Counted from the stretch's first letter, positions 35,200 through 53,576 are shown. The stretch: 64,000 nucleotides of DNA from an uncultured Cytophagia bacterium (GCA_964647995.1 CAZYNP010000004.1:124422-188421), one strand, 5' to 3'. Notes: generated from the sequence alone by a model not told the origin. Numbers and translations are program-made.

Positions 35200-35277
35200 T
35201 GGTCGGGGCGCCGAGATTTGAACTCGGGACCTCCTGCTCCCAAAGCAGGCGCGCTACCCGGACTGCGCTACGCCCCG
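35200..35277 (-). tRNA. tRNA-Pro (anticodon TGG)
   Basis: Reverse complement is CGGGGCGTAGCGCAGTCCGGGTAGCGCGCCTGCTTTGGGAGCAGGAGGTCCCGAGTTCAAATCTCGGCGCCCCGACCA. It has a 7-bp acceptor stem, D loop, anticodon loop TTTGGGA, T-loop GTTCAAATC and an encoded CCA. Confidence 0.9.
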
Positions 35278-35439: not shown

Positions 35440-36042
35440 TCATTGCTGTGAGCTTGCAAGCCACTGCTCTAAAATGACGCGTGCCTTTTGCAGTGCCAGC
35501 CCGCGATGACTGATATCATTTTTGAGGGCCAAGGGCATTTCAGCAAAAGTTTGTCCCAGTTTGGGGACATAAAACACTGGATCATAGCCGAATCCACCCT
35601 GGCCCCGCCTTTCTTCGCTAATAATTCCCTCACAGACCCCTTCGACAACCTGCTCCATCGTCGGACTTACTAACGCCACGACACAGCGGAAGCGTGCGGT
35701 TCGTTGCTGGCGGGGAACGCCGTTCAGCCGTTGCAACAATTTTTCGACATTGTCATCGTAGGTCGCATCCGGACCGGCAAACCGACTGGAATAAACGCCA
35801 GGCGCACCACCCAAAAAATCCACCTCTAATCCCGTGTCATCGGCCAGACAGAGCAGTTGAGTATAATCACATACCGCACGAGCTTTTTTTATGGCATTTT
35901 CGGCCACCGTTTGACCATCTTCGACCAGGGCCGGAATTTCTGGGAACCGATCGAGGGTTAACATTTCCATGTTCAAGCCCTCCAGTGCGGCCCGGATTTC
36001 ATTTATCTTGTCAGCATTGCGTGTGGCCAGAACCAGCTTCAA
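35440..36042 (-). CDS. rdgB: non-canonical purine NTP pyrophosphatase (RdgB/HAM1)
   Basis: 200 aa, MKLVLATRNADKINEI...GFGYDPVF...SHRG, the HAM1 signature. Confidence 0.9.
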   Translation of the reverse strand: MKLVLATRNADKINEIRAALEGLNMEMLTLDRFPEIPALVEDGQTVAENAIKKARAVCDYTQLLCLADDTGLEVDFLGGAPGVYSSRFAGPDATYDDNVEKLLQRLNGVPRQQRTARFRCVVALVSPTMEQVVEGVCEGIISEERRGQGGFGYDPVFYVPKLGQTFAEMPLALKNDISHRGLALQKARVILEQWLASSQQ

Positions 36043-40845: not shown

Positions 40846-41574
40846 CTATAATTTTTGGGCATAAACCAGAATTTCAAAGTCATCCAGTTCAATAGCCCGC
40901 GACTGAAAATTGCCAGCCTGGCAGCCATAGCCATCGATAACATCGAAACCAATTGTTTCCAGAATAAACTTGATTTCGGAAAAAGTGTAGTACCGATTGG
41001 AGCAGCACAGTTCCTCCGGCTGGCCACTTTCATTGATAAATTTTTCCGTCCAATACCCCATGCAGGTTTTAGGATCAAAATATGAGTCTTGCTCCGGATG
41101 TCGGAAAATATATGACGCATGCAACACGTTCAGCAATAGTTTGCCCCGACTTTTTAGCGATTCATAGAGGTTGGTTAAGATGGCGACATTTTCGGCATCA
41201 TTGTCCATAATACCAAAGGCGCCCTCACAAAGAGAAAACGCTGCATCGTAGCATGCTGGAAAACGCATGGTGCGGGCATCGGCATGAATGAACTCCACCG
41301 CCACGTTTTCCTGCGCAGCTCGCTCACGGGCCAGGGCGATCATGCGCGGGGAAATATCCAGCCCCGTGACCTGAAAACCGCGTCGAGCCAGCTCAATAGC
41401 ATGACGGCCTGGTCCGCAGCCGACATCCAGGATTCGCTGCGGAGGTGTTAATTGTAGCAACTGAACGATGAAGTCAACCTCTTGCGCTGTTCCTTGAGTA
41501 AAGGGATAAGCAAGGTAATTTCGGCCTAATTTTTCGAATAGCTCTAAATACCATCGTGGAGTGACCTGGCGCAT
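40846..41574 (-). CDS. class I SAM-dependent methyltransferase (small-molecule/UbiE-like, not a DNA MTase)
   Basis: Motif I ILDVGCGPGRHAIELARRGFQVTGLDIS. The start was moved to Met 41574 (MRQVTPRW), which has RBS AGGGGAG; the longer track ORF would overlap the upstream gene by 26 nt. No DPPY/NPPY motif. Confidence 0.8.
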   Translation of the reverse strand: MRQVTPRWYLELFEKLGRNYLAYPFTQGTAQEVDFIVQLLQLTPPQRILDVGCGPGRHAIELARRGFQVTGLDISPRMIALARERAAQENVAVEFIHADARTMRFPACYDAAFSLCEGAFGIMDNDAENVAILTNLYESLKSRGKLLLNVLHASYIFRHPEQDSYFDPKTCMGYWTEKFINESGQPEELCCSNRYYTFSEIKFILETIGFDVIDGYGCQAGNFQSRAIELDDFEILVYAQKL

Positions 41575-41650
41575 GATCGTATCTCCCCTTTTTGGAACCG
41601 GTCCTTTTGTCGTTGTGCTGCAATTGTCGCTGAGGCAGTTCCCTCGACGG

Positions 41651-44600
41651 TCAGAATAATTGCAATTGTGCATCATCGACTGGCGTTTCTTTGTCTCGGG
41701 GTCGGTCCTTGAGCTGTGCCTGACGTTGTTGCTTTAGCGCTTCTTCGATGTCGGCTAAAAATCGCGAGGGTCGATTATTTTTTCTCTCACCAAATAGGAA
41801 GCGGCTTTTGGTATACAATAGAATCAATCGTTGTTTGGCGCGGGTCATTCCCACGTAGAATAGCCGCCGCTCTTCTTCGATGTCGCCAGTAGTAGCCTGC
41901 GGGTGCCGATAAGGAATCAGCCCTTCCTCACAGCCGGCAATAAAAACAACCGGGAACTCTAAGCCTTTGGCGGCATGCAAGGTTAACAACGCCACTTTTT
42001 CCGCTTGCGGATTGTAGACATCCGTCTCTCTCTGAAGCGCGATCTGCTCCAGGAAATCACTCAAATTCACGGCTGCCGCATCGGCATATTCCCGCAACAA
42101 TTGCCAATAATATTGTCGCCGTCGGTCTTTTTTATAATACGATAGCAATCCGAATTGCGTCATTATGCGGGAGAGAATTTCGCCAACCGGGGCATCAGGA
42201 ACGAAAGCCATTATGTCCTTCATTCGACCGACCCAGCGCTCGATCGGCTGCTTCTGGGCTGCACTCAGCGGCGCAATCTGGCGACAGCGCTGCATGGCTT
42301 CCCAGAGCGACAGCGCATTGGTACGTTGGTAGCTCACCAATGATCGCAAAGTCGACTCGCCAATGCCGGTTGGCGCAATCTGGAGTATCCGCTGCAAATC
42401 CAGATCCGCCTGGGGCTGCTGCAGCACCTTCAAAAACGAAACCATTTCTTTCACTTCGGGAATTTCATAAAACGGCTGTTCGCCAACCGTCTGGTAGGGA
42501 ATCCCGGAACGAAGAAATGCCTCTTCCAGCGCAGCGACCTGGGCCCCCAATCGATAGAGTACCGCAATCTCGGAAAAACCAGTACAGGTTTGGGATTCCT
42601 CGTCGCCAGCACGACCAGAATCTACCGAAAAGAAGCTGGTGGCCCCCATCATCTTCTCGATCTGATGCACGATAGTCTCGGCTTCGGATTTCTCAGTTGG
42701 CGTCTGAAAAATGTCAATTTGAGTCCGGGAGATCAGGGGTGACCAGAGATGGTAATTCTGATGGTCTGGATTTTTGGAAATCACCTGCGTCGATGCCTTG
42801 AGAATCGTTGCCACCGACCGATAGTTCTTTTCCAGCCGAATGACCCGGCAGGCCGGAAAGTCCTGTTCAAATTGCAGGAAGAAACGACGGTCCGAGCCGC
42901 GAAAACCATAGATCGCCTGATCGGGATCGCCAATGGCACAGATGTGGGTCTCCGGAGTCGTCAGCGAGCGTAACAATTCATATTGCGGCCGATTGATATC
43001 CTGATATTCATCGATAAACAACCATCGATACCGCTGTTGATATTTCTTGAGCACGGCAGGCTGCGCTTGAAATAGGCGGATGGGCATTAAAATCAAATCA
43101 TCATAATCAAACGCCTGTTGCGCGTGGAGCGCTTGCTGATATTGATCGCACCAGGAACTCAACCGCGCATCAGTTGACGCAGGTGCTTCCGGGTCAGAAT
43201 GGGCAGGAGACAGGCTGTTTTTGAACCGGGAAATTTGATCGGCCAGCTCTCGTATCTCTTTGTTGGATAATGTCGGTGCGATTGTTTTTAGCAAATTTAT
43301 CACGTCGCTCTCGCCGTAGATCAAAAAGCTCGCCGGATAATTTATCGTTCGCGCCTCCTGCCTCAAAATGGAAGCTCCCAGAGCATGGAATGTTTTAATG
43401 GTTATGGCGCTGGTGGTGCTCTCACCCAACACCGCCAGCAGTCGCGACCGCATCTCCTGAGCGGCACGATTGGTAAAAGTAATTGCCAATATCTGATCCG
43501 GCGGGACACCCTTGTTTTGAATCCAAAACGCGATGCGCTGCGTGAGGGTATGAGTTTTGCCGGTGCCGGGCCCGGCAACTATCAATAACGAAGAACCGTC
43601 ATATTCTACTGCCTCCTGCTGGCGGCGATTGAGGCCGGTCGCGCCTTCTTCATCAGATTCGTGCGGCGCCGCAATTGCGGCCTCTGGAGTAACCTCCGGC
43701 GGGGGTTGTTGCTGACCGTAGGCCAACTCCTGATCTTTTATCCCCGACGGCGCGGGTTGATCGCCTGCGGTTGGCAACACCGAGGCATCATCGCCAAAAA
43801 AGAAGGATTGCGATAAAAACCGCTGTCGCTCGTCATCCGAGAAGAGTTTGATGGTGCCAAACTCGCCATCATAGCCGGCAGCAATCTGGACCTCTTTCTG
43901 GCGCATACGTCGAATTCCCTCGGCCAACAAGCTCCCGCCGGCTCGCTGGAGTTCACTGAGCGGAATCTCCGTCAGGATCGTTATTTCGGAACCGAATTGG
44001 CGCAGTAGCTTTTCCAGCTTTGCCGCGACCGCCTTGGTGCCCGCACCGACCGCTAAGATCTCCGCCAAAACTTCCGGCAACGGTATCAGGCTATGGAAAG
44101 GCCTGGCAGCAGACGGTTGTGAGCCGAACGGACGGTCGGCCAATGCTTCCACGCGATTGAGGACGCCAACGGTCACGCGCTTGCCGCAAACCGGACAGTG
44201 GCCCTGATGCGCGGCAGTCTCAGCCGGAGTGAGCCGCACCTGGCAGCTCCGATGACCATCCAGATGATACTTGCCCTCCTCCGGGAAAAATTCAATCGTA
44301 CCTAAGAAGTGTCCCGAACTGCCGTTTTTTAACGCTGTTAGCATCGCAGGATAGGAAAACTCACCATCGAATATATTTGCCTCGCGTCCCAGCTTTGCCG
44401 GTGAATGGGCATCCGAATTCGAGACCAGGGTGAATCGATCCAGTTGGGAAAGCATCCAATTCATCGGCGGATCTGACGAGAGACCGGTTTCCAGGGCGAA
44501 AATTTGCGGCGTGAGGTCCTCGAAGCAATCACCAATGGAATCGAAGCCGGATTTTGAGCCCAGCACGGAAAACCAGGGCGTCCAGATATGCGCGGGAATT

Positions 44601-45079
44601 AAAAACGACCATTCGTGCGATTGGAGCACCATTTCCAGCAGATCCCGAGCATCGAGCCCCAGGATGGGCCGGCCGTCAGATCGGATATTGCCGATTTTTT
44701 CCAATGCCACTTGAAATTTTTGGGCAACATCAAGGGAGGGAAAAAAGACGATGTTATGAATTTTGCGGACGTGATCGCCTTTTTTATAAATATTGCTAAT
44801 CTCGCCCGACAGCACAAAACGGACCTCGCGGTGACATGCTGCTGGGACGGTGGCATCGATGGCGCGGGCATAATCAGATTTCAGGCGAAAGAAACCCGGC
44901 TCGGCCGGTTCCAATTTGGTTTTGATCTCATCCAACCAGCCCGGATGCGTGATATCGCCGCTGGCAACCACCTGAATCCCCTTTAGCTGTGCCCAGCGGT
45001 GCAACTGTTCGAATGTCAGATCCTTGCTGGTAGCTCGGGAAAAGTGAGAATGAATATGCAAATCAGCGATGAATTTCAT
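41651..45079 (-). CDS. fusion protein: N-terminal EndoQ-like PHP-domain endonuclease + Zn ribbon (~aa 1-430), Pro/Gln-rich linker, C-terminal UvrD/PcrA-like SF1 helicase (~aa 500-1142)
   Basis: N-terminus: MKFIADLHIHSHFSRA, GDITHPGW, IPAHIWTPWFS, SNSDAHSPAKLGREANIF, GKYHLDGHRSC...CPVCGKR, RPFHSLIPLPEVLA and FGSEITIL match EndoQ/TIGR00375 as I remember it. C-terminus: Q-motif LNRRQQEAV, Walker A AGPGTGKTHTL, FTNRAAQEM, Walker B DEYQDI, GDPDQAIYGFRG, NYRS, TLHAAKGLEFPVVFIAG and YVGMTRAKQRL, i.e. SF1 motifs Q through VI. Confidence 0.85.
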   Translation of the reverse strand: MKFIADLHIHSHFSRATSKDLTFEQLHRWAQLKGIQVVASGDITHPGWLDEIKTKLEPAEPGFFRLKSDYARAIDATVPAACHREVRFVLSGEISNIYKKGDHVRKIHNIVFFPSLDVAQKFQVALEKIGNIRSDGRPILGLDARDLLEMVLQSHEWSFLIPAHIWTPWFSVLGSKSGFDSIGDCFEDLTPQIFALETGLSSDPPMNWMLSQLDRFTLVSNSDAHSPAKLGREANIFDGEFSYPAMLTALKNGSSGHFLGTIEFFPEEGKYHLDGHRSCQVRLTPAETAAHQGHCPVCGKRVTVGVLNRVEALADRPFGSQPSAARPFHSLIPLPEVLAEILAVGAGTKAVAAKLEKLLRQFGSEITILTEIPLSELQRAGGSLLAEGIRRMRQKEVQIAAGYDGEFGTIKLFSDDERQRFLSQSFFFGDDASVLPTAGDQPAPSGIKDQELAYGQQQPPPEVTPEAAIAAPHESDEEGATGLNRRQQEAVEYDGSSLLIVAGPGTGKTHTLTQRIAFWIQNKGVPPDQILAITFTNRAAQEMRSRLLAVLGESTTSAITIKTFHALGASILRQEARTINYPASFLIYGESDVINLLKTIAPTLSNKEIRELADQISRFKNSLSPAHSDPEAPASTDARLSSWCDQYQQALHAQQAFDYDDLILMPIRLFQAQPAVLKKYQQRYRWLFIDEYQDINRPQYELLRSLTTPETHICAIGDPDQAIYGFRGSDRRFFLQFEQDFPACRVIRLEKNYRSVATILKASTQVISKNPDHQNYHLWSPLISRTQIDIFQTPTEKSEAETIVHQIEKMMGATSFFSVDSGRAGDEESQTCTGFSEIAVLYRLGAQVAALEEAFLRSGIPYQTVGEQPFYEIPEVKEMVSFLKVLQQPQADLDLQRILQIAPTGIGESTLRSLVSYQRTNALSLWEAMQRCRQIAPLSAAQKQPIERWVGRMKDIMAFVPDAPVGEILSRIMTQFGLLSYYKKDRRRQYYWQLLREYADAAAVNLSDFLEQIALQRETDVYNPQAEKVALLTLHAAKGLEFPVVFIAGCEEGLIPYRHPQATTGDIEEERRLFYVGMTRAKQRLILLYTKSRFLFGERKNNRPSRFLADIEEALKQQRQAQLKDRPRDKETPVDDAQLQLF

Positions 45080-45587
45080 TTTCAGATTGATACGTTCGTT
45101 GTTAACTTTTGGCTAATCAATGTCTACAGATAATCGATTTTTGACCTGGAACTGGCAGAGAGACGATGGTGACAGTTGACAGTTGTCAACCGAATCAGAA
45201 TGATCCAATGACCGCCACGCCACCACGACGATCAGGCGGCGTCTGCCATTGCGTGTTGAAAACGCCGCCAAAAATCTGGCAATCGCATCCAGATGCTTCG
45301 GGTTTTGTTCGCTCAGCGGCCTGTTGTCCTGGAAGTTAGAATGCCGGTTGACTCCGAGATAGCCATTCATCACCTCCCCATTCAGGCTTACGAGCACTAA
45401 TACTATAATTAAATAAAAGGAGAAAGTCAAGAAGATTGTGGGAAAAGGTTGGTGATATTTTGTCATTTCTGGCAGGAGGAAAAAAACTATCTCCGCTTGT
45501 CGAAAAAGCGATTTCGACAAAAAATGTTCTGACCCATGGCAAATGTGACTGGCAGCGTTGGTCAGCAATGTCCTGGTCGCGGTGCAG

Positions 45588-45875
45588 TTATTTTTTCGAA
45601 GATGACCGGGATGATTGTTTCCATAAAATATATCCAGTGACCAGAATGGCTATCACCAGATTGGTGATAAAGATGGCGTTCCAGAATGTGACATTGTAAA
45701 AAAATCTGCCCAGTCGCATCCGAAAAATCAGGATGAGAACTCCCAAAAGAGCGTAGATAAATGCATAGATGTAGTACAGGAAGATGTTGCCATGATTGTA
45801 GTCCTCGAACAGCGCTCTGAGGATGAAGAACAAAAGTGCGCTGCATAGTATGCCGAAAAAGACTGGAAGTAGCAT
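45588..45875 (-). CDS. small 3-TM membrane protein (hypothetical)
   Basis: 95 aa, strongly hydrophobic, with AAGGAG RBS 8 nt upstream. This is the only ORF in the 45.1-47.2 kb stretch with reasonable signals. Confidence 0.4.
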   Translation of the reverse strand: MLLPVFFGILCSALLFFILRALFEDYNHGNIFLYYIYAFIYALLGVLILIFRMRLGRFFYNVTFWNAIFITNLVIAILVTGYILWKQSSRSSSKK

Positions 45876-46686
45876 GACTTTTGCTCCTTATTTTTGTACT
45901 GGATTGCAGTGGCACATCCACCATTTTCAAAAAATGAATTGGCAAATTGAAATTCATTGACAGCTTAAATGGCAGAAATTCGTTCCAAAGTGGGTAGTGG
46001 CTGGAGAGCAATGCAGCACGAAATGCGATTCTGTTTCTTGGGCAGCGGTGAATATTTTCGGTTATTTGGTATAACGATCCAATCGATGCTCAGCCTCCGA
46101 GGTAGAAGAGCAGGCAGCCCCGAAAGGCCGGGCGCTTGCCAGCAGAGAGAGGGCATTGACGATTTTACAGCCAATGTCTGACTTCGGATTGAATTAAAAT
46201 ATAGCTATCACCTCCTGAATATTTATTTGACGGCATAAATTTCGACAACATGTTACACCAATAATATAACCAGATTTTCTTGAAAGTCAAGTAGATTTTA
46301 TACTCAAAAAAAATAACCAAACAGAACAATGCCCAATGGAGGGCTAACTCGACTATGAGCTGACAATTGGCAATTCTTGACGGCCATCGGCTATTTTTCG
46401 CCGGCAGGGTCACACGCACCAAGTGCGGCAAAGAAATCCCTCGTCGAGGGAAAACTGCAAGGCATTTTGCGTTCGTTGACGGCTGAAGCGTAGGCTGATC
46501 CATAGGGTTCTAATAAGCAGAGCAAACAATTGTCCTTATGCAAATACGGCCCAGGGATCGATGGCAGCATCTAATCTGAGTTTTCTAAACTAAATTATAA
46601 TCTGTCGGAAAAAATCCAAACGCCTTCCGGCCGCTGGTGTTGACCAGATCAATAAGTCACAAAAATCTCATCAATACCAAATTGGC

Positions 46687-46870
46687 GAGCGACCGGTCAG
46701 TAACTTGGTCCACTCATACGTGAGGTTTTTCAGCTCATTGAAAAAAATCAGTTATAGGTGGACTGACCAGTCGCTTAAAAATGGAATGCTTCCAAAATCT
46801 CAAAAAGTTGAGCGACCGGTCAGTAACTTGGTCCACTCATACGTGAGGTTTTTCAGATCATTGAAAAAAA
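46687..46870. repeat. two 61-bp direct repeats (1 mismatch) flanking a partial inverted copy
   Basis: gagcgaccggtcagtaacttggtccactcatacgtgaggtttttcagMtcattgaaaaaaa occurs at 46687-46748 and 46810-46870. Between them lies ggtggactgaccagtcgc (46757-46774), an inverted partial copy of the repeat's 5' end. The track ORF 46705-46935 is an artefact of this repetition. Confidence 0.7.
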
Positions 46871-46873
46871 GTC

Positions 46874-46902
46874 TTGACATCGAAAAAATTTATTTCTATA
46901 TT
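46874..46902 (+). promoter_or_regulatory. sigma70-like promoter TTGACA-17nt-TATATT immediately after the second direct repeat
   Basis: Hexamers and spacing read directly. It points toward the lytic transglycosylase gene about 310 nt downstream. Confidence 0.4.
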
Positions 46903-47215
46903 CGGCGCTTTATTTTTAAAAACGAAATTCGATAAAATTAGCTTTTAGGCATATTCATTGAAACTTGACCTAAATCACAGCTATATTTTCGAAAAAAAGT
47001 TACATTTGACCAACAAAAAAGGATATTGACTATCGTCAACGAATAGTTGGGCAGTCCATCTCCTCATTCCCAAAAACGGTCAACGATGAAACCTAAACTG
47101 AGATGGATCGTTTAAAGCAGAGTTTTTAACGGCGCCATTAGAGCCTAACGAGAATTCAATTTCAATGCTATACGGGACCATAATTAGTTATTCAATTACA
47201 TAAGGAGAAATCAGG

Positions 47216-51060: not shown

Positions 51061-53576
51061 CTACCGCCTGGTTAATATCACCCCTAAATTGATTCGTCGT
51101 CCAACATCGAACGCACTGGGATCACCCAATTCGCCGCCAATTTTTCCATCGGAGGCAATCCATAGCACATTGTATTTGTCAAATAAATTACGCACATCCG
51201 CGTATGTCTGGATCGTTACATCTTTGGCTAAACGCCAGTTCTTGAACATCTTGATATCAACATAGGCAACCGTTCTCATGCGAGCATTGTTCGGCTTCAT
51301 TTCGACACTCAAGTCCGGGACATAGCCGGTGCGAGAAGGATAATAGGTGTACGGTCGCGGGGAATGCCAGCGCCAGATTAAGCTCAGACCCAATTTCTGA
51401 GGAATCCCGACAAAAATGTCCCCGACCAGCGTCTGCCGTTGATCCCAGCTTAAATAGAATTCCTCATTGGGGACAGCAAATCCCCAGACAAAATAGTTCA
51501 GCCCCTGGTCAATGCTGCCGCTGAGGCCTTTGGCATGCATGTGCGTGTAGCACAATTTTCCAGAGACAAAATGACCATATTTTTTTCCAGCAGCAGCTCA
51601 AATCCGTTGGAGTTGCCGCCAGCCAGGTTGACGAATTGGGAGTAACCGTCGTCTTCGGCTTTGCTGTCCGAGGCTAAAAAAGTTTTAGTATCCACCAGGC
51701 CCGAAATGTCTTTATTAAAATAGGTGAACGACACCAACCAGGTATTCCACAAGGTACGTTTGTAGCTGAGCTCTATGGCGCTGGTGCGCTCGGGCTTTAA
51801 GTCGGGATTACCATACTGCGCCTTGATGCCTTTCTTGAGATCGAAATTCAAACCGGTGAACATATAATCGAACATGGGCACCTGAAAAAAGAAGCCATAG
51901 TTAATGAAGAAAAAATCGTTTTTGGTGATGGGAAATGAAAATCCAAAGCGTGGGCTTAATTGCGACTTAATCGAAGCGGGCACCAAGTTTTTGATCTCTT
52001 GTTTATAATCTTCTGCCGTGATAGGAATCCATTCGACGACCGGGCGCCGGGCGCGGGGATTGAGGAATTCATATCGCAACCCCAGGTTCATTACTACAAT
52101 ATCATTATCTATTTTATTTTAAATAAACAATGCACCCTGATAGGGTCGATAATGATAGTAGCTGCTGTAATTGAGCAACTCCCGATCGAGCAATGGCTTG
52201 ACCCAGAACGACTTCTGTGGCTCATACTTGACTAAATCATTCTCTAAATCAAAATATTGAAATTCGAATCCCATCTTCAATTGCGAAACGGGATGATACT
52301 GGGCGGTAAAATCACCTTTTGCCAGATAGCTAATCTCCCTCGCATCCTGCCACCACAGACGATTGCCAGCGAAAACGAAATAGTACCACGGCAATTCATA
52401 CTGAAACGGCTGCATCGCCTCCACATCGTTTTTATCACCCTGCCCCAGGTAATGCTCAATTTGATAGCGACTGAAATAGAGAGAATAAAAAGTGCGGGGC
52501 GACAGCGTATGCACCAACGTACCGCTCAATTGCAGCGAACGCCTGGATTGCGGCGGCAGTCCGGTCAAATTGTAGCGCCAGCGATATTCATAAGGCTTAA
52601 TGTCCCAATCGGAAAAAATCGCCTGAGTAATGAACCTAATATTGTGAGTGAGATCGAAATTAATTTTTCCCATGAGATTGATGTTTTTTTACATGGGCGA
52701 ATCAAAGTACTGTCGCAGATCCTGCCACCAGCGGGTGTCAGAAACCAGCAGATGGGAAGCGAAGAAATAGCGGATTTGGTCACGATAGATCGGACCGGAT
52801 AGCATTAATTCGGCTTCACTTTTTTTATCGCTTTCTTCAATGCCAATGTGATCGTCCAGCAATCGGGCCAGGACCTCATGCTTGTTTCCGCCCGATTTGG
52901 TCACGATATTGATGATGCCGGACATGGCGTTGCCATATTCCGCATTGAATCCACCGGTTTGGACCGTCATTTCGGCCAGCGAGGCGTGTGGGATTTCAGA
53001 ACCAGCGCCGCCTTCCATGGATTGCTGGATTGGCAAGCCGTCAACAAGATAGAGGACTTCGGTAGCTCTTCCGCCCCGGATGTGCAGATCCGATGTCACG
53101 CCTGGCTGCAACGCAATCACTTCTCTATAGGAATTTACCGGCAGGTCATTGATTTTGGAACTGCCGATTGAGTGCGTTGTGCCGGTGATGTCCTTGGGAA
53201 TCAGTGGTCGCTCGGCTGTGACGACAATTTCCTTGTCTATATCCACCGCGGTCTCGATCATTTCCATTTTGACTTCGGTTTTCAGATCCATGATGATGCG
53301 GACATTTTCGATGACATAGGGCTGATATCCAATCATCGGCGCAGTCACCCGATAAACTCCCGCAGCCACATGATAAACCACAAATTTGCCATCTTGATCT
53401 GTGGCTGCCCCAAATTTGGTACCAACGATGATAACGTTGACCCTCACCAGCGGTTTGCGGCTTTTCTGGTCCACCACTTCGCCCTTCAGCGTACCGGTGG
53501 TGCTTGAATGAAGAGCCGCCGAAATTGAAAAGCATACGGCGATGCCAGTTAAGATGATTAGTGGTTTCATGTTCAT
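51061..53576 (-). pseudogene. TonB-dependent receptor interrupted by two frameshifts and one in-frame stop
   Basis: Four consecutive minus-strand ORFs cover an N-terminal carboxypeptidase-regulatory-like domain plus plug (52689-53576), then barrel segments (52119-52673, 51498-52091, 51061-51555). Frame changes fall in T7 homopolymers at 52684-52690 and ~51577-51583. There is an in-frame TAA at 52117-52119, read as ...GALFI*NKIDNDIVVMNLGLRYEF. Confidence 0.6.

Follow-up and report, generated by a model that had tools for sequence, protein, structure and literature searches.

An EndoQ-like nuclease fused in frame to a UvrD/PcrA-type helicase: a probable clamp-recruited repair enzyme of bacteria

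A single gene in a 64,000-nucleotide stretch of DNA from an uncultured Cytophagia bacterium (GCA_964647995.1 CAZYNP010000004.1:124422-188421; the window, with positions counted from its first letter) encodes a protein in which an endonuclease Q (EndoQ)-like module is joined to a UvrD/PcrA-type helicase. The gene lies at 41651..45079 on the minus strand and begins MKFIADLHIHSH; the open reading frame (ORF) listing gives 1142 amino acids (aa) plus a stop codon, laid out as an EndoQ module (aa 1-413), a linker (aa 414-482) and a UvrD/PcrA core (aa 483-1124). We consider it probable that the protein is a chromosomal housekeeping repair enzyme, a single polypeptide for both lesion incision and strand unwinding, recruited by way of the replication sliding clamp. 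An earlier inspection of the DNA (the sequence-only reading) had offered two functions for this gene, a self-contained repair enzyme or an anti-phage defense module, and the former is the one that fits the intact active sites and the housekeeping context.

The single frame described in that reading was borne out by the ORF listing and by matches to TIGR00375, PcrA TIGR01073 and Pfam families. A word-indexed search retrieved P0001, a protein of 100% identity, together with more than 120 homologues that run the full length (about 1090-1170 aa) and are 50-82% identical. They belong to candidate division KSB1, Zhuqueibacterota, Anaerolineae and unnamed metagenomes, and their database names are only “UvrD-helicase domain-containing protein”, “PcrA” or “TIGR00375 family”. 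The GC and GC3 of the fusion gene resemble those of the adjacent genes, and its composition is native. An assembly or sequencing error that fused two neighboring genes might be entertained because the assembly is not flawless, the window containing at least one broken gene (a TonB-dependent receptor with two in-frame stops in its translated stretch). We give this next to no credence: it is refuted by the more than 120 independent full-length homologues from differing samples and sources, by the in-frame fusion at 61 of 80 species loci, and by the unbroken linker and the identical architecture in a sister genome whose protein is 82% identical. The fusion is thus a genuine single gene, not a mis-joined pair.

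Profile searches place residues 5-410 in the EndoQ family (TIGR00375, NCBIfam; model positions 2-374 of 374, E = 3.4e-48). When the N-terminal 479 residues were searched against the PDB, only Pyrococcus furiosus EndoQ (PfuEndoQ) chains matched (5zb8 and 7k30-33, E about 5e-53), with query residues 5-412 aligned to chain residues 5-382. Mutagenesis of PfuEndoQ has defined the metal-ligand, catalytic, pocket and Zn residues that the enzyme needs (PMC5961232). For residue conservation, the PfuEndoQ sequence was rebuilt from the PDB-search alignment and then aligned with 120 homologues. The PfuEndoQ metal ligands H8, H10, E76, H84, H139 and D193 correspond to H8, H10, E93, H108, H164 and D223 of the fusion, the essential R114 and H195 to R137 and H225, W144 to W169, the pocket residues G169, L170 and S171 to G199, L200 and S201, and the DNA-contacting K243 and Y244 to K270 and Y271. 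All tested catalytic, pocket and DNA-contact residues, together with three of the four Zn cysteines, are kept in 118-120 of the 120 homologues, and the lesion-pocket and flipping residues W169, G199, L200 and S201 are invariant in all 120. The earlier assignment of an EndoQ domain with its catalytic residues is therefore upheld, every tested PfuEndoQ catalytic and base-pocket residue being present on alignment. As for the Zn ribbon, a four-ligand site is indeed present, formed by His-Cys-Cys-Cys (H276, C279, C295 and C298) rather than by four cysteines as in PfuEndoQ (C249, C252, C268 and C271); the position of PfuEndoQ C249 is His in all 120 homologues and at 78 of the 80 loci.

The three domains of EndoQ can be followed along the gene (all on the minus strand). 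The PHP catalytic domain (aa 1-265; 44285..45079), delimited on the PfuEndoQ alignment, carries the metal ligands. The Zn-binding domain (aa 266-332; 44084..44284) holds the four Zn ligands and the DNA contacts K270 and Y271. The C-terminal helical domain (aa 333-413; 43841..44083) is supported by precomputed Pfam annotation as PF27218 (MJ0043_C, the C-terminal domain of the Methanocaldococcus jannaschii EndoQ homologue), which is present on P0001 and all listed homologues, and by structural similarity to 5zb8. In Foldseek, the predicted N-terminal module superimposes on 5zb8 with a TM score of 0.88-0.90 and an rmsd of 2.2 Å over about 420 alignment columns. Relative to PfuEndoQ, the PHP domain has two insertions, of 17 aa (near aa 68-84; window 44795-44878) and 7 aa (near aa 97-103; window 44771-44791), which hold the family-invariant C82, Y98 and K99.

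Steric exclusion of thymine and adenine has been attributed to residues H139, G169 and S171 of PfuEndoQ (PMC8307549). Since their equivalents are kept, the same specificity for uracil (U), hypoxanthine (Hx) and abasic (AP) sites is the natural prediction for the fusion. The EndoQ module appears catalytically competent, and it is predicted to cut 5′ of deoxyuridine (dU), deoxyinosine (dI) or an AP site.

The remainder of the protein resembles a UvrD-family motor. Residues 482-1132 match PcrA TIGR01073 (NCBIfam, E = 6e-165), the Pfam families UvrD-helicase and UvrD_C cover residues 483-742 and onward to 1091, and the helicase part aligns to residues 12-647 of 724 in PcrA (1pjr, E = 4e-112). The complete core that the sequence-only reading had described, with its Q-motif, Walker A, DEYQD and motifs III-VI, was found by both motif map and profile matches: Walker A (AGPGTGKT) lies at 502-509 and DEYQD at 690-694, the other motifs (Q, Ia, III, IV, V and VI) are present too, and across full-length homologues all eight motifs (Q, I, Ia, II, III, IV, V and VI) show 90-100% conservation of their core residues. 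The predicted C-terminal module matches UvrD-DNA complexes in Foldseek (TM 0.84-0.88), and the four-subdomain 1A/1B/2A/2B fold is evident from this and from the alignment to PcrA 12-647. This SF1A helicase core (aa 483-1124) maps to 41708..43633 on the minus strand, and the module looks competent by its motifs.

The C-terminal extension of PcrA and UvrD is a partner-binding element. In the fusion this C-terminal domain is absent: the alignment to PcrA stops at its residue 647 of 724 and the profile match at model position 652 of 725, so that about 75 last residues are missing. Motif VI is instead followed by a disordered, Lys-rich tail of about 56 aa that ends in QLQLF.

To place the protein among its relatives, we scanned one genome per species in GTDB (185,579 representatives) with the N-domain alignment as query, and found N-domain relatives in at least 592 species across many phyla. 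The best 80 of these at least 592 species-level loci (L001-L080) include Chloroflexota, KSB1, Desulfobacterota, Myxococcota (Sorangium), Planctomycetota, Bacteroidales, Actinomycetota (Actinoallomurus, Saccharopolyspora and Kutzneria), Omnitrophota, Peregrinibacteria, Elusimicrobia, Nitrospirota and Neomoorella stamsii. EndoQ and helicase are fused in one frame at 61 of the 80; at 10, a separate EndoQ ORF of about 427-433 aa is followed by a UvrD-like gene; 7 have no nearby helicase match, of which only 4 have 5.9 kb or more of downstream sequence; and 2 are cut by the contig end. In nine of the ten split pairs the helicase starts about 5-265 nt downstream of EndoQ, and in L017, at a contig end, about 1.4 kb downstream. 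A rough, crude neighbor-joining tree nests the split and stand-alone forms among the fused ones, grouping by taxon.

An exhaustive HMMER search with the N-domain gave 1091 representatives (clustered at 50% identity) at E ≤ 1e-30 and 2555 at E ≤ 1e-10. Among the best 150 representatives, 121 are 1000 aa or longer, 117 of them with Walker A; Walker A is also present in 24 of the 28 entries of intermediate length, which look like truncated fusions. The 80 loci and 150 representatives are those most similar to the query, and the proportion found fused describes this clade rather than EndoQ homologues at large. In sequence space near the query protein, fusion is the dominant form, and EndoQ and helicase are evolutionarily coupled through fusion or adjacency. 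The premise that EndoQ is normally a stand-alone protein of about 420 aa accordingly stands for the characterized enzymes only.

Several of the split helicases are short, about 483-515 aa (L009:11451-12977, L021:11384-12907, L054:11311-12858, L029:11531-13006, L014:4412-5863 and L022:3556-5007). In a BLASTP comparison of the L009 helicase with the query, residues 387-544 of the query helicase module are missing and a C-terminal QMTLF is retained; we take the missing segment to be the 2B subdomain. As 2B is regarded as autoinhibitory in Rep and UvrD, naturally 2B-less UvrD-type helicases are of interest in their own right.

The fusion also appears to carry two motifs of the β-clamp-binding type, one internal and one C-terminal, a feature that the sequence-only reading did not see. 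The bacterial clamp-binding pentapeptide has the consensus QL[SD]LF. The fusion ends in ...DDAQLQLF, and the C-terminal clamp-binding-like pentapeptide Q1138-L-Q-L-F1142 (41654..41668, minus strand) closes the Lys-rich disordered tail. The exact C-terminus fits Q[LMIVF]x[LMIF][FLMY] in 104 of 120 homologues, and the pattern falls within the last 12 aa in 112; the commonest versions are QLKLF, QLSLF and QMKLF, and the Lys-rich tail that precedes them is otherwise variable. The internal motif, Q424-S-F-F-F428 (43796..43810, minus strand), sits at the boundary of EndoQ and linker, with a family consensus of QLxFF. Among the 120 homologues, Q424 is kept in 111, with hydrophobic residues at 427 and 428; the strict form occurs in 72, always 15 aa past the sequence GYDGEYG, which closes the EndoQ fold.

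Where the two parts are separate genes, most stand-alone EndoQ ORFs end in QLxLF at the position of the internal motif. In seven of the nine split pairs with both C-termini readable, both ORFs, EndoQ and helicase, terminate in a Q-type copy of their own, as in L009 (GQMTLF and GQMTLF), L014 (RQMALF and LQMKLF), L021, L022, L029, L058 and L070; L053 and L054 have weaker or partial clamp-type motifs. A further locus, L024, encodes a “stand-alone” EndoQ (L024:5084-6458) with no clamp motif at its end (…QKNPPDRR); the tree places it closest to the fused L008 protein, just 1.6 kb of contig is left downstream, and it may be a truncated or decaying copy. In archaeal EndoQ, a PIP box at the extreme C-terminus mediates binding to the sliding clamp PCNA (KD 55 nM) and is needed for stimulation by PCNA; bacterial stand-alone EndoQ homologues have been reported to carry the β-clamp consensus at their C-termini (PMC4858679). 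By analogy, the motifs of the fusion would mirror the archaeal link between EndoQ and PCNA.

Clamp motifs would also fit a helicase that works at forks, the PCNA-bound yeast Srs2 being an example, and the protein might be mainly a PcrA/UvrD-type helicase for the control of forks, transcription conflicts or recombination, its EndoQ-like domain serving as an accessory DNA- or clamp-binding or structure-specific module. The PcrA-like core is complete, PcrA is the best match in both the PDB and NCBIfam, and the 64-kb window contains no second UvrD-type gene. We nevertheless regard this account as unlikely. Every EndoQ catalytic and base-pocket residue is strictly conserved, which favors a working lesion-specific nuclease; the helicase lacks the PcrA/UvrD C-terminal domain and scores far under the equivalog cut-offs. 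Some lineages, moreover, have EndoQ without a nearby helicase, and some partner helicases are without 2B, so that the helicase looks like the accessory.

For the repair enzyme that we favor, a sequence of four steps can be proposed. The QLxLF-type motifs at 424-428 and 1138-1142 would first tether the protein to the β-clamp (DnaN), a step suggested by the motifs themselves and by the archaeal analogy. The EndoQ module would then flip uracil, hypoxanthine or an abasic site into its pocket and cut directly 5′ of the lesion, leaving a 3′-OH and a 5′-phosphate on the lesion nucleotide; we infer this step because the catalytic, pocket and Zn residues are completely conserved. Next, the tethered UvrD-type 3′-5′ motor would load at the nick, track along the undamaged strand and peel away the lesion-bearing 5′ end. 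UvrD unwinds from the 5′ incision in nucleotide excision repair and from MutH nicks in mismatch repair, which serves as the model for this motor step. The motor may also displace the product-bound nuclease and so allow turnover, since PfuEndoQ stays on its nicked product (PMC5961232). A 5′ flap nuclease or exonuclease, a polymerase and a ligase would finally complete repair; none of these is encoded at the locus. Published models of the EndoQ pathway already postulate a helicase step (PMC4357722, PMC8438529).

The two modules are joined by a flexible linker of 69 aa (aa 414-482; 43634..43840, minus strand), rich in Pro, Gln, Ala and acidic residues, poorly conserved and predicted to be disordered, which agrees with the Pro/Gln-rich linker of about 70 aa noticed at the outset. 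Its length varies from 55 to 127 aa among homologues (median 71). An AlphaFold2 model built on 83 sequences has a mean pLDDT of 83.1, with values below 50 at 427-475 (linker) and 1125-1142 (tail). Each modeled module has a counterpart of known structure, PfuEndoQ and the UvrD-DNA complexes respectively, and in Foldseek no solved chain spans both.

This linker bears on another possible way of working, in which the helicase would unwind processively and thread single strands past the EndoQ site, scanning for dU or dI and cutting single-stranded DNA. PfuEndoQ does cleave U and Hx efficiently in single-stranded DNA (PMC11354406), and clamp motifs fit work on newly replicated DNA. Cuts in unwound single strands, however, would give breaks and not repairable nicks, a disordered linker of 55-127 aa offers no channel from motor to nuclease, unlike AddA and RecB, and the split versions work as separate proteins. 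We hold such scanning to be very unlikely, and retain nicking followed by unwinding as the preferred order of events.

Several observations weigh against a clamp-recruited lesion nickase-helicase. The EndoQ module scores 164.9 bits on TIGR00375, under the curated cut-off of 326.6; it represents a diverged bacterial clade and is not a strict equivalog of that family. The helicase likewise scores under the equivalog cut-offs of PcrA (550.5 vs. 911.2), UvrD (423.2 vs. 1144.45) and Rep (487.6 vs. 951.45). Short linear motifs can mislead: the loose clamp-motif pattern has a background of about 0.5 extra occurrences per protein, and only 81 of the 121 long 50%-identity representatives have the motif in their last 8 residues. 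The pTM of the AlphaFold model is 0.59, with no fixed geometry of nuclease and motor across the long flexible linker, and because of this value and the disordered linker the relative orientation of the two modules is not interpretable. The patchy phyletic spread could reflect horizontal transfer, which is also typical of defense genes. Finally, the substrate range, helicase polarity and clamp binding of the fusion are themselves predictions from sequence and modeled structure.

The patchy distribution is one of the features that would suit the other function proposed at the outset, a Gabija/Nhi-style anti-phage protein that destroys invading DNA containing uracil or other non-canonical bases, its helicase feeding the nuclease. 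Bacterial EndoQ has been suggested to act in antiviral defense, for example against the uracil-DNA phage PBS1 (PMC8307549), and in PADLOC the helicase part of the fusion scores well against the GajB and RTasHel models. These matches, though, are generic UvrD-core similarity, and no PADLOC family matches the nuclease domain (aa 1-425) even at E ≤ 1. The window contains no GajA-like or other defense partner. When 131 neighboring proteins at 69 loci were searched with PADLOC, the matches listed were only generic GajB/RTasHel ones, on seven split helicases.

Nor do the neighborhoods resemble defense islands. When as many as four genes to either side were clustered at the 69 loci with flanks, the split helicase was the sole recurrent family, the largest neighbor cluster covering 9 of the 69 loci at scattered positions. 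In Pfam, the 131 immediate neighbors belong to scattered housekeeping families, such as LeuRS, DnaN, RdgC, SLT and aldo-keto reductases, and the flanks in the window, with holA among them, are housekeeping as well. A tblastn search found the EndoQ domain in 0 of 50,697 phage records and in 1 of 72,556 plasmid records, a 733-kb Brevibacillus replicon whose match is a stand-alone “endonuclease Q family protein” with 27% identity. Stable synteny with the sister genome, the native composition, and the conserved clamp-binding-type motifs, which point to the replication and repair machinery, argue in the same direction. We therefore reject both a defense-island context and carriage by mobile elements, and rate the anti-phage function as a shade less probable even than scanning of single strands. 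The case speaks for caution in labeling nuclease-helicase fusions as defense genes from their architecture alone.

Comparison with characterized systems shows the fusion to combine familiar parts. Like archaeal EndoQ (PfuEndoQ, PF1551, and TkoEndoQ, TK0887; 5zb8, 7k30), it has PHP, Zn-binding and helical domains with all catalytic and pocket residues, and a short motif of clamp-binding type directly after the helical domain. It differs in the attached helicase of about 660 aa, in the His that replaces the first Zn-ligand Cys, in the two PHP insertions, in a motif of the bacterial β-clamp type rather than a PIP box, and in falling below the TIGR00375 cut-off. Nicking at dU, dI and AP sites has been demonstrated for bacterial stand-alone EndoQ (Bacillus pumilus, or B. 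subtilis YqxK type), according to the passages that cite this work in PMC8307549 and PMC8438529. These enzymes share with the fusion a bacterial EndoQ and, as reported, the β-clamp consensus at the C-terminus (PMC4858679); they have no helicase attached, and the only such relative retrieved, that of the Brevibacillus megaplasmid, has the low identity to the N-domain given above.

Among helicases, UvrD, PcrA and Rep (2is6, 1pjr and 1uaa) share the complete 1A/1B/2A/2B core with all its motifs. In contrast to them, the fusion has an N-terminal nuclease, a Lys-rich tail of QLxLF type in place of the C-terminal domain, and scores below their equivalog cut-offs. AddA, RecB and AdnB, which Foldseek matched at lower TM, also unite a nuclease with a UvrD-family motor on a single chain. 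In these enzymes, a C-terminal PD-(D/E)xK nuclease is rigidly docked to the motor and acts on double-strand ends. The nuclease of the fusion is instead N-terminal, PHP-type and a predicted lesion-specific nickase on a flexible linker, and the motor is followed by only the 56-aa tail. The likeness to Gabija GajB and other defense UvrD-like helicases is confined to the UvrD-like core. The Gabija nuclease is a separate protein, GajA, an OLD-type ATPase-TOPRIM enzyme, whereas the fusion has no GajA partner, no defense context and a nuclease domain without a PADLOC match. In yeast, the UvrD-family helicase Srs2 is recruited to PCNA by a C-terminal motif and acts as an anti-recombinase, with no nuclease. 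The fusion resembles it as a UvrD-type motor tethered, by its predicted motif, to a sliding clamp via a C-terminal tail, and differs in being bacterial and nuclease-bearing; Srs2 is an independent evolutionary invention.

Downstream of the fusion gene lie genes for a methyltransferase, holA, an extracytoplasmic function (ECF) sigma factor, an anti-sigma factor and an HtrA-like protease; upstream and divergent are genes for an SLT transglycosylase, a radical S-adenosylmethionine (SAM) enzyme and an epimerase. The sequence-only reading had drawn attention to the methyltransferase as a possible companion. The gene is real and its product is a generic class I SAM enzyme (Methyltransf_25/11/31 matches) with, as stated there, no match to DNA-methyltransferase families; its likely start is M35 at 41574, 76 nt past the stop codon of the fusion, and the sister-genome orthologue is called at 243 aa. 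The link to the fusion is not conserved. Synteny is seen only in the sister genome, which is collinear throughout the region; in KSB1 relatives of 64-67% identity the gene downstream of the fusion codes for an M28 peptidase instead, and tblastn found the methyltransferase next to the fusion at 0 of 80 loci; a Methyltransf_25 domain occurs in only 2 of the 131 flanking proteins. The neighborhood survey thus shows no co-occurrence, and we reject the methyltransferase as a member of the module. Its PADLOC match to “mad2” covers the generic SAM-binding fold only and was discarded.

The palindrome that had been noticed upstream of the gene exists, although it was slightly mis-transcribed. On the plus strand the inverted repeat reads GGTGACAGTTGACAGTTGTCAAC, with a perfect 7-2-7 core, GTTGACA-GT-TGTCAAC, at 45175-45190, 96-111 nt upstream of the ATG. 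The core occurs once in the window vs. 0.01 expected, and at 45170-45190 the repeat overlaps a tandem TGACAGT TGACAGT and a TTGACA hexamer. It is not conserved in orthologous upstream regions, not even at the 82%-identical sister locus, and a role as conserved operator was rejected, though the repeat is statistically unusual in the window. A consensus scan gave a weak candidate promoter, TTGACT-17-TATAGT (45402..45430, minus strand; 10 of 12 matches), about 320 nt upstream of the ATG, which resembles a cTTGACTTT...TATAGTAT element upstream of the L081 and L082 orthologues.

About 2.1 kb (45080-47215) separate the fusion from the divergent SLT gene. This region contains no convincing gene, and none is called in the corresponding part of the sister locus. 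It has no Rfam or tRNA match and its ORFs have no Pfam match; among them is a hydrophobic 95-aa ORF at 45588-45875 on the minus strand. Further away, 5.6 kb downstream of the fusion and on the same strand, the window encodes a Ham1/RdgB-type dITP/XTP pyrophosphatase (35440-36042, minus; Pfam E = 7.8e-65). This enzyme and EndoQ both deal with hypoxanthine in DNA; linkage of the two was not seen in L001-L080, and their proximity is probably a coincidence. A tRNA-Pro gene (anticodon TGG; 35200-35277, minus) is the sole RNA gene detected in the window. The broken TonB-dependent receptor gene spans 51061-53576 on the minus strand, with two in-frame stops in the translated frame 51498-53576 and the next ORF, 51061-51555, in a different frame by coordinates. 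The sister genome encodes this receptor as one 839-aa product, and the broken gene is either a pseudogene or the result of assembly errors in the record.

The sequence-only reading did not know this nuclease-helicase fusion as a described architecture, and our searches agree: no curated model for it was found in NCBIfam release 20, Pfam or PADLOC, and no description was found in the searchable literature (7.7 million papers in PMC, and bioRxiv). Public databases already list the proteins, under generic names, and they are not a new sequence family. The fusion is an uncharacterized architecture, a variant on known kinds that the literature searched does not describe.

The literature assigns EndoQ to Euryarchaeota and “a few bacteria”, and models of the events after incision invoke “a helicase” (PMC8438529, PMC4357722). 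In hundreds of bacterial species from many phyla, a helicase is covalently attached to EndoQ or encoded directly downstream of it. We put forward, tentatively and with less confidence than the repair function itself, that the fusion and its split equivalents are the main natural form of bacterial EndoQ and define a hitherto unrecognized, glycosylase-independent, β-clamp-recruited “nick-and-unwind” excision pathway. The proposal makes testable predictions, namely ATP-independent nicking 5′ of dU, dI and AP sites, unwinding of the lesion strand initiated at the nick, and dependence on DnaN, and a compact single-protein lesion nickase-helicase could serve as a reagent. If it is true, the missing helicase step of the EndoQ pathway would be identified, and the view of EndoQ as an essentially archaeal enzyme, found in “a few bacteria”, would be overturned.

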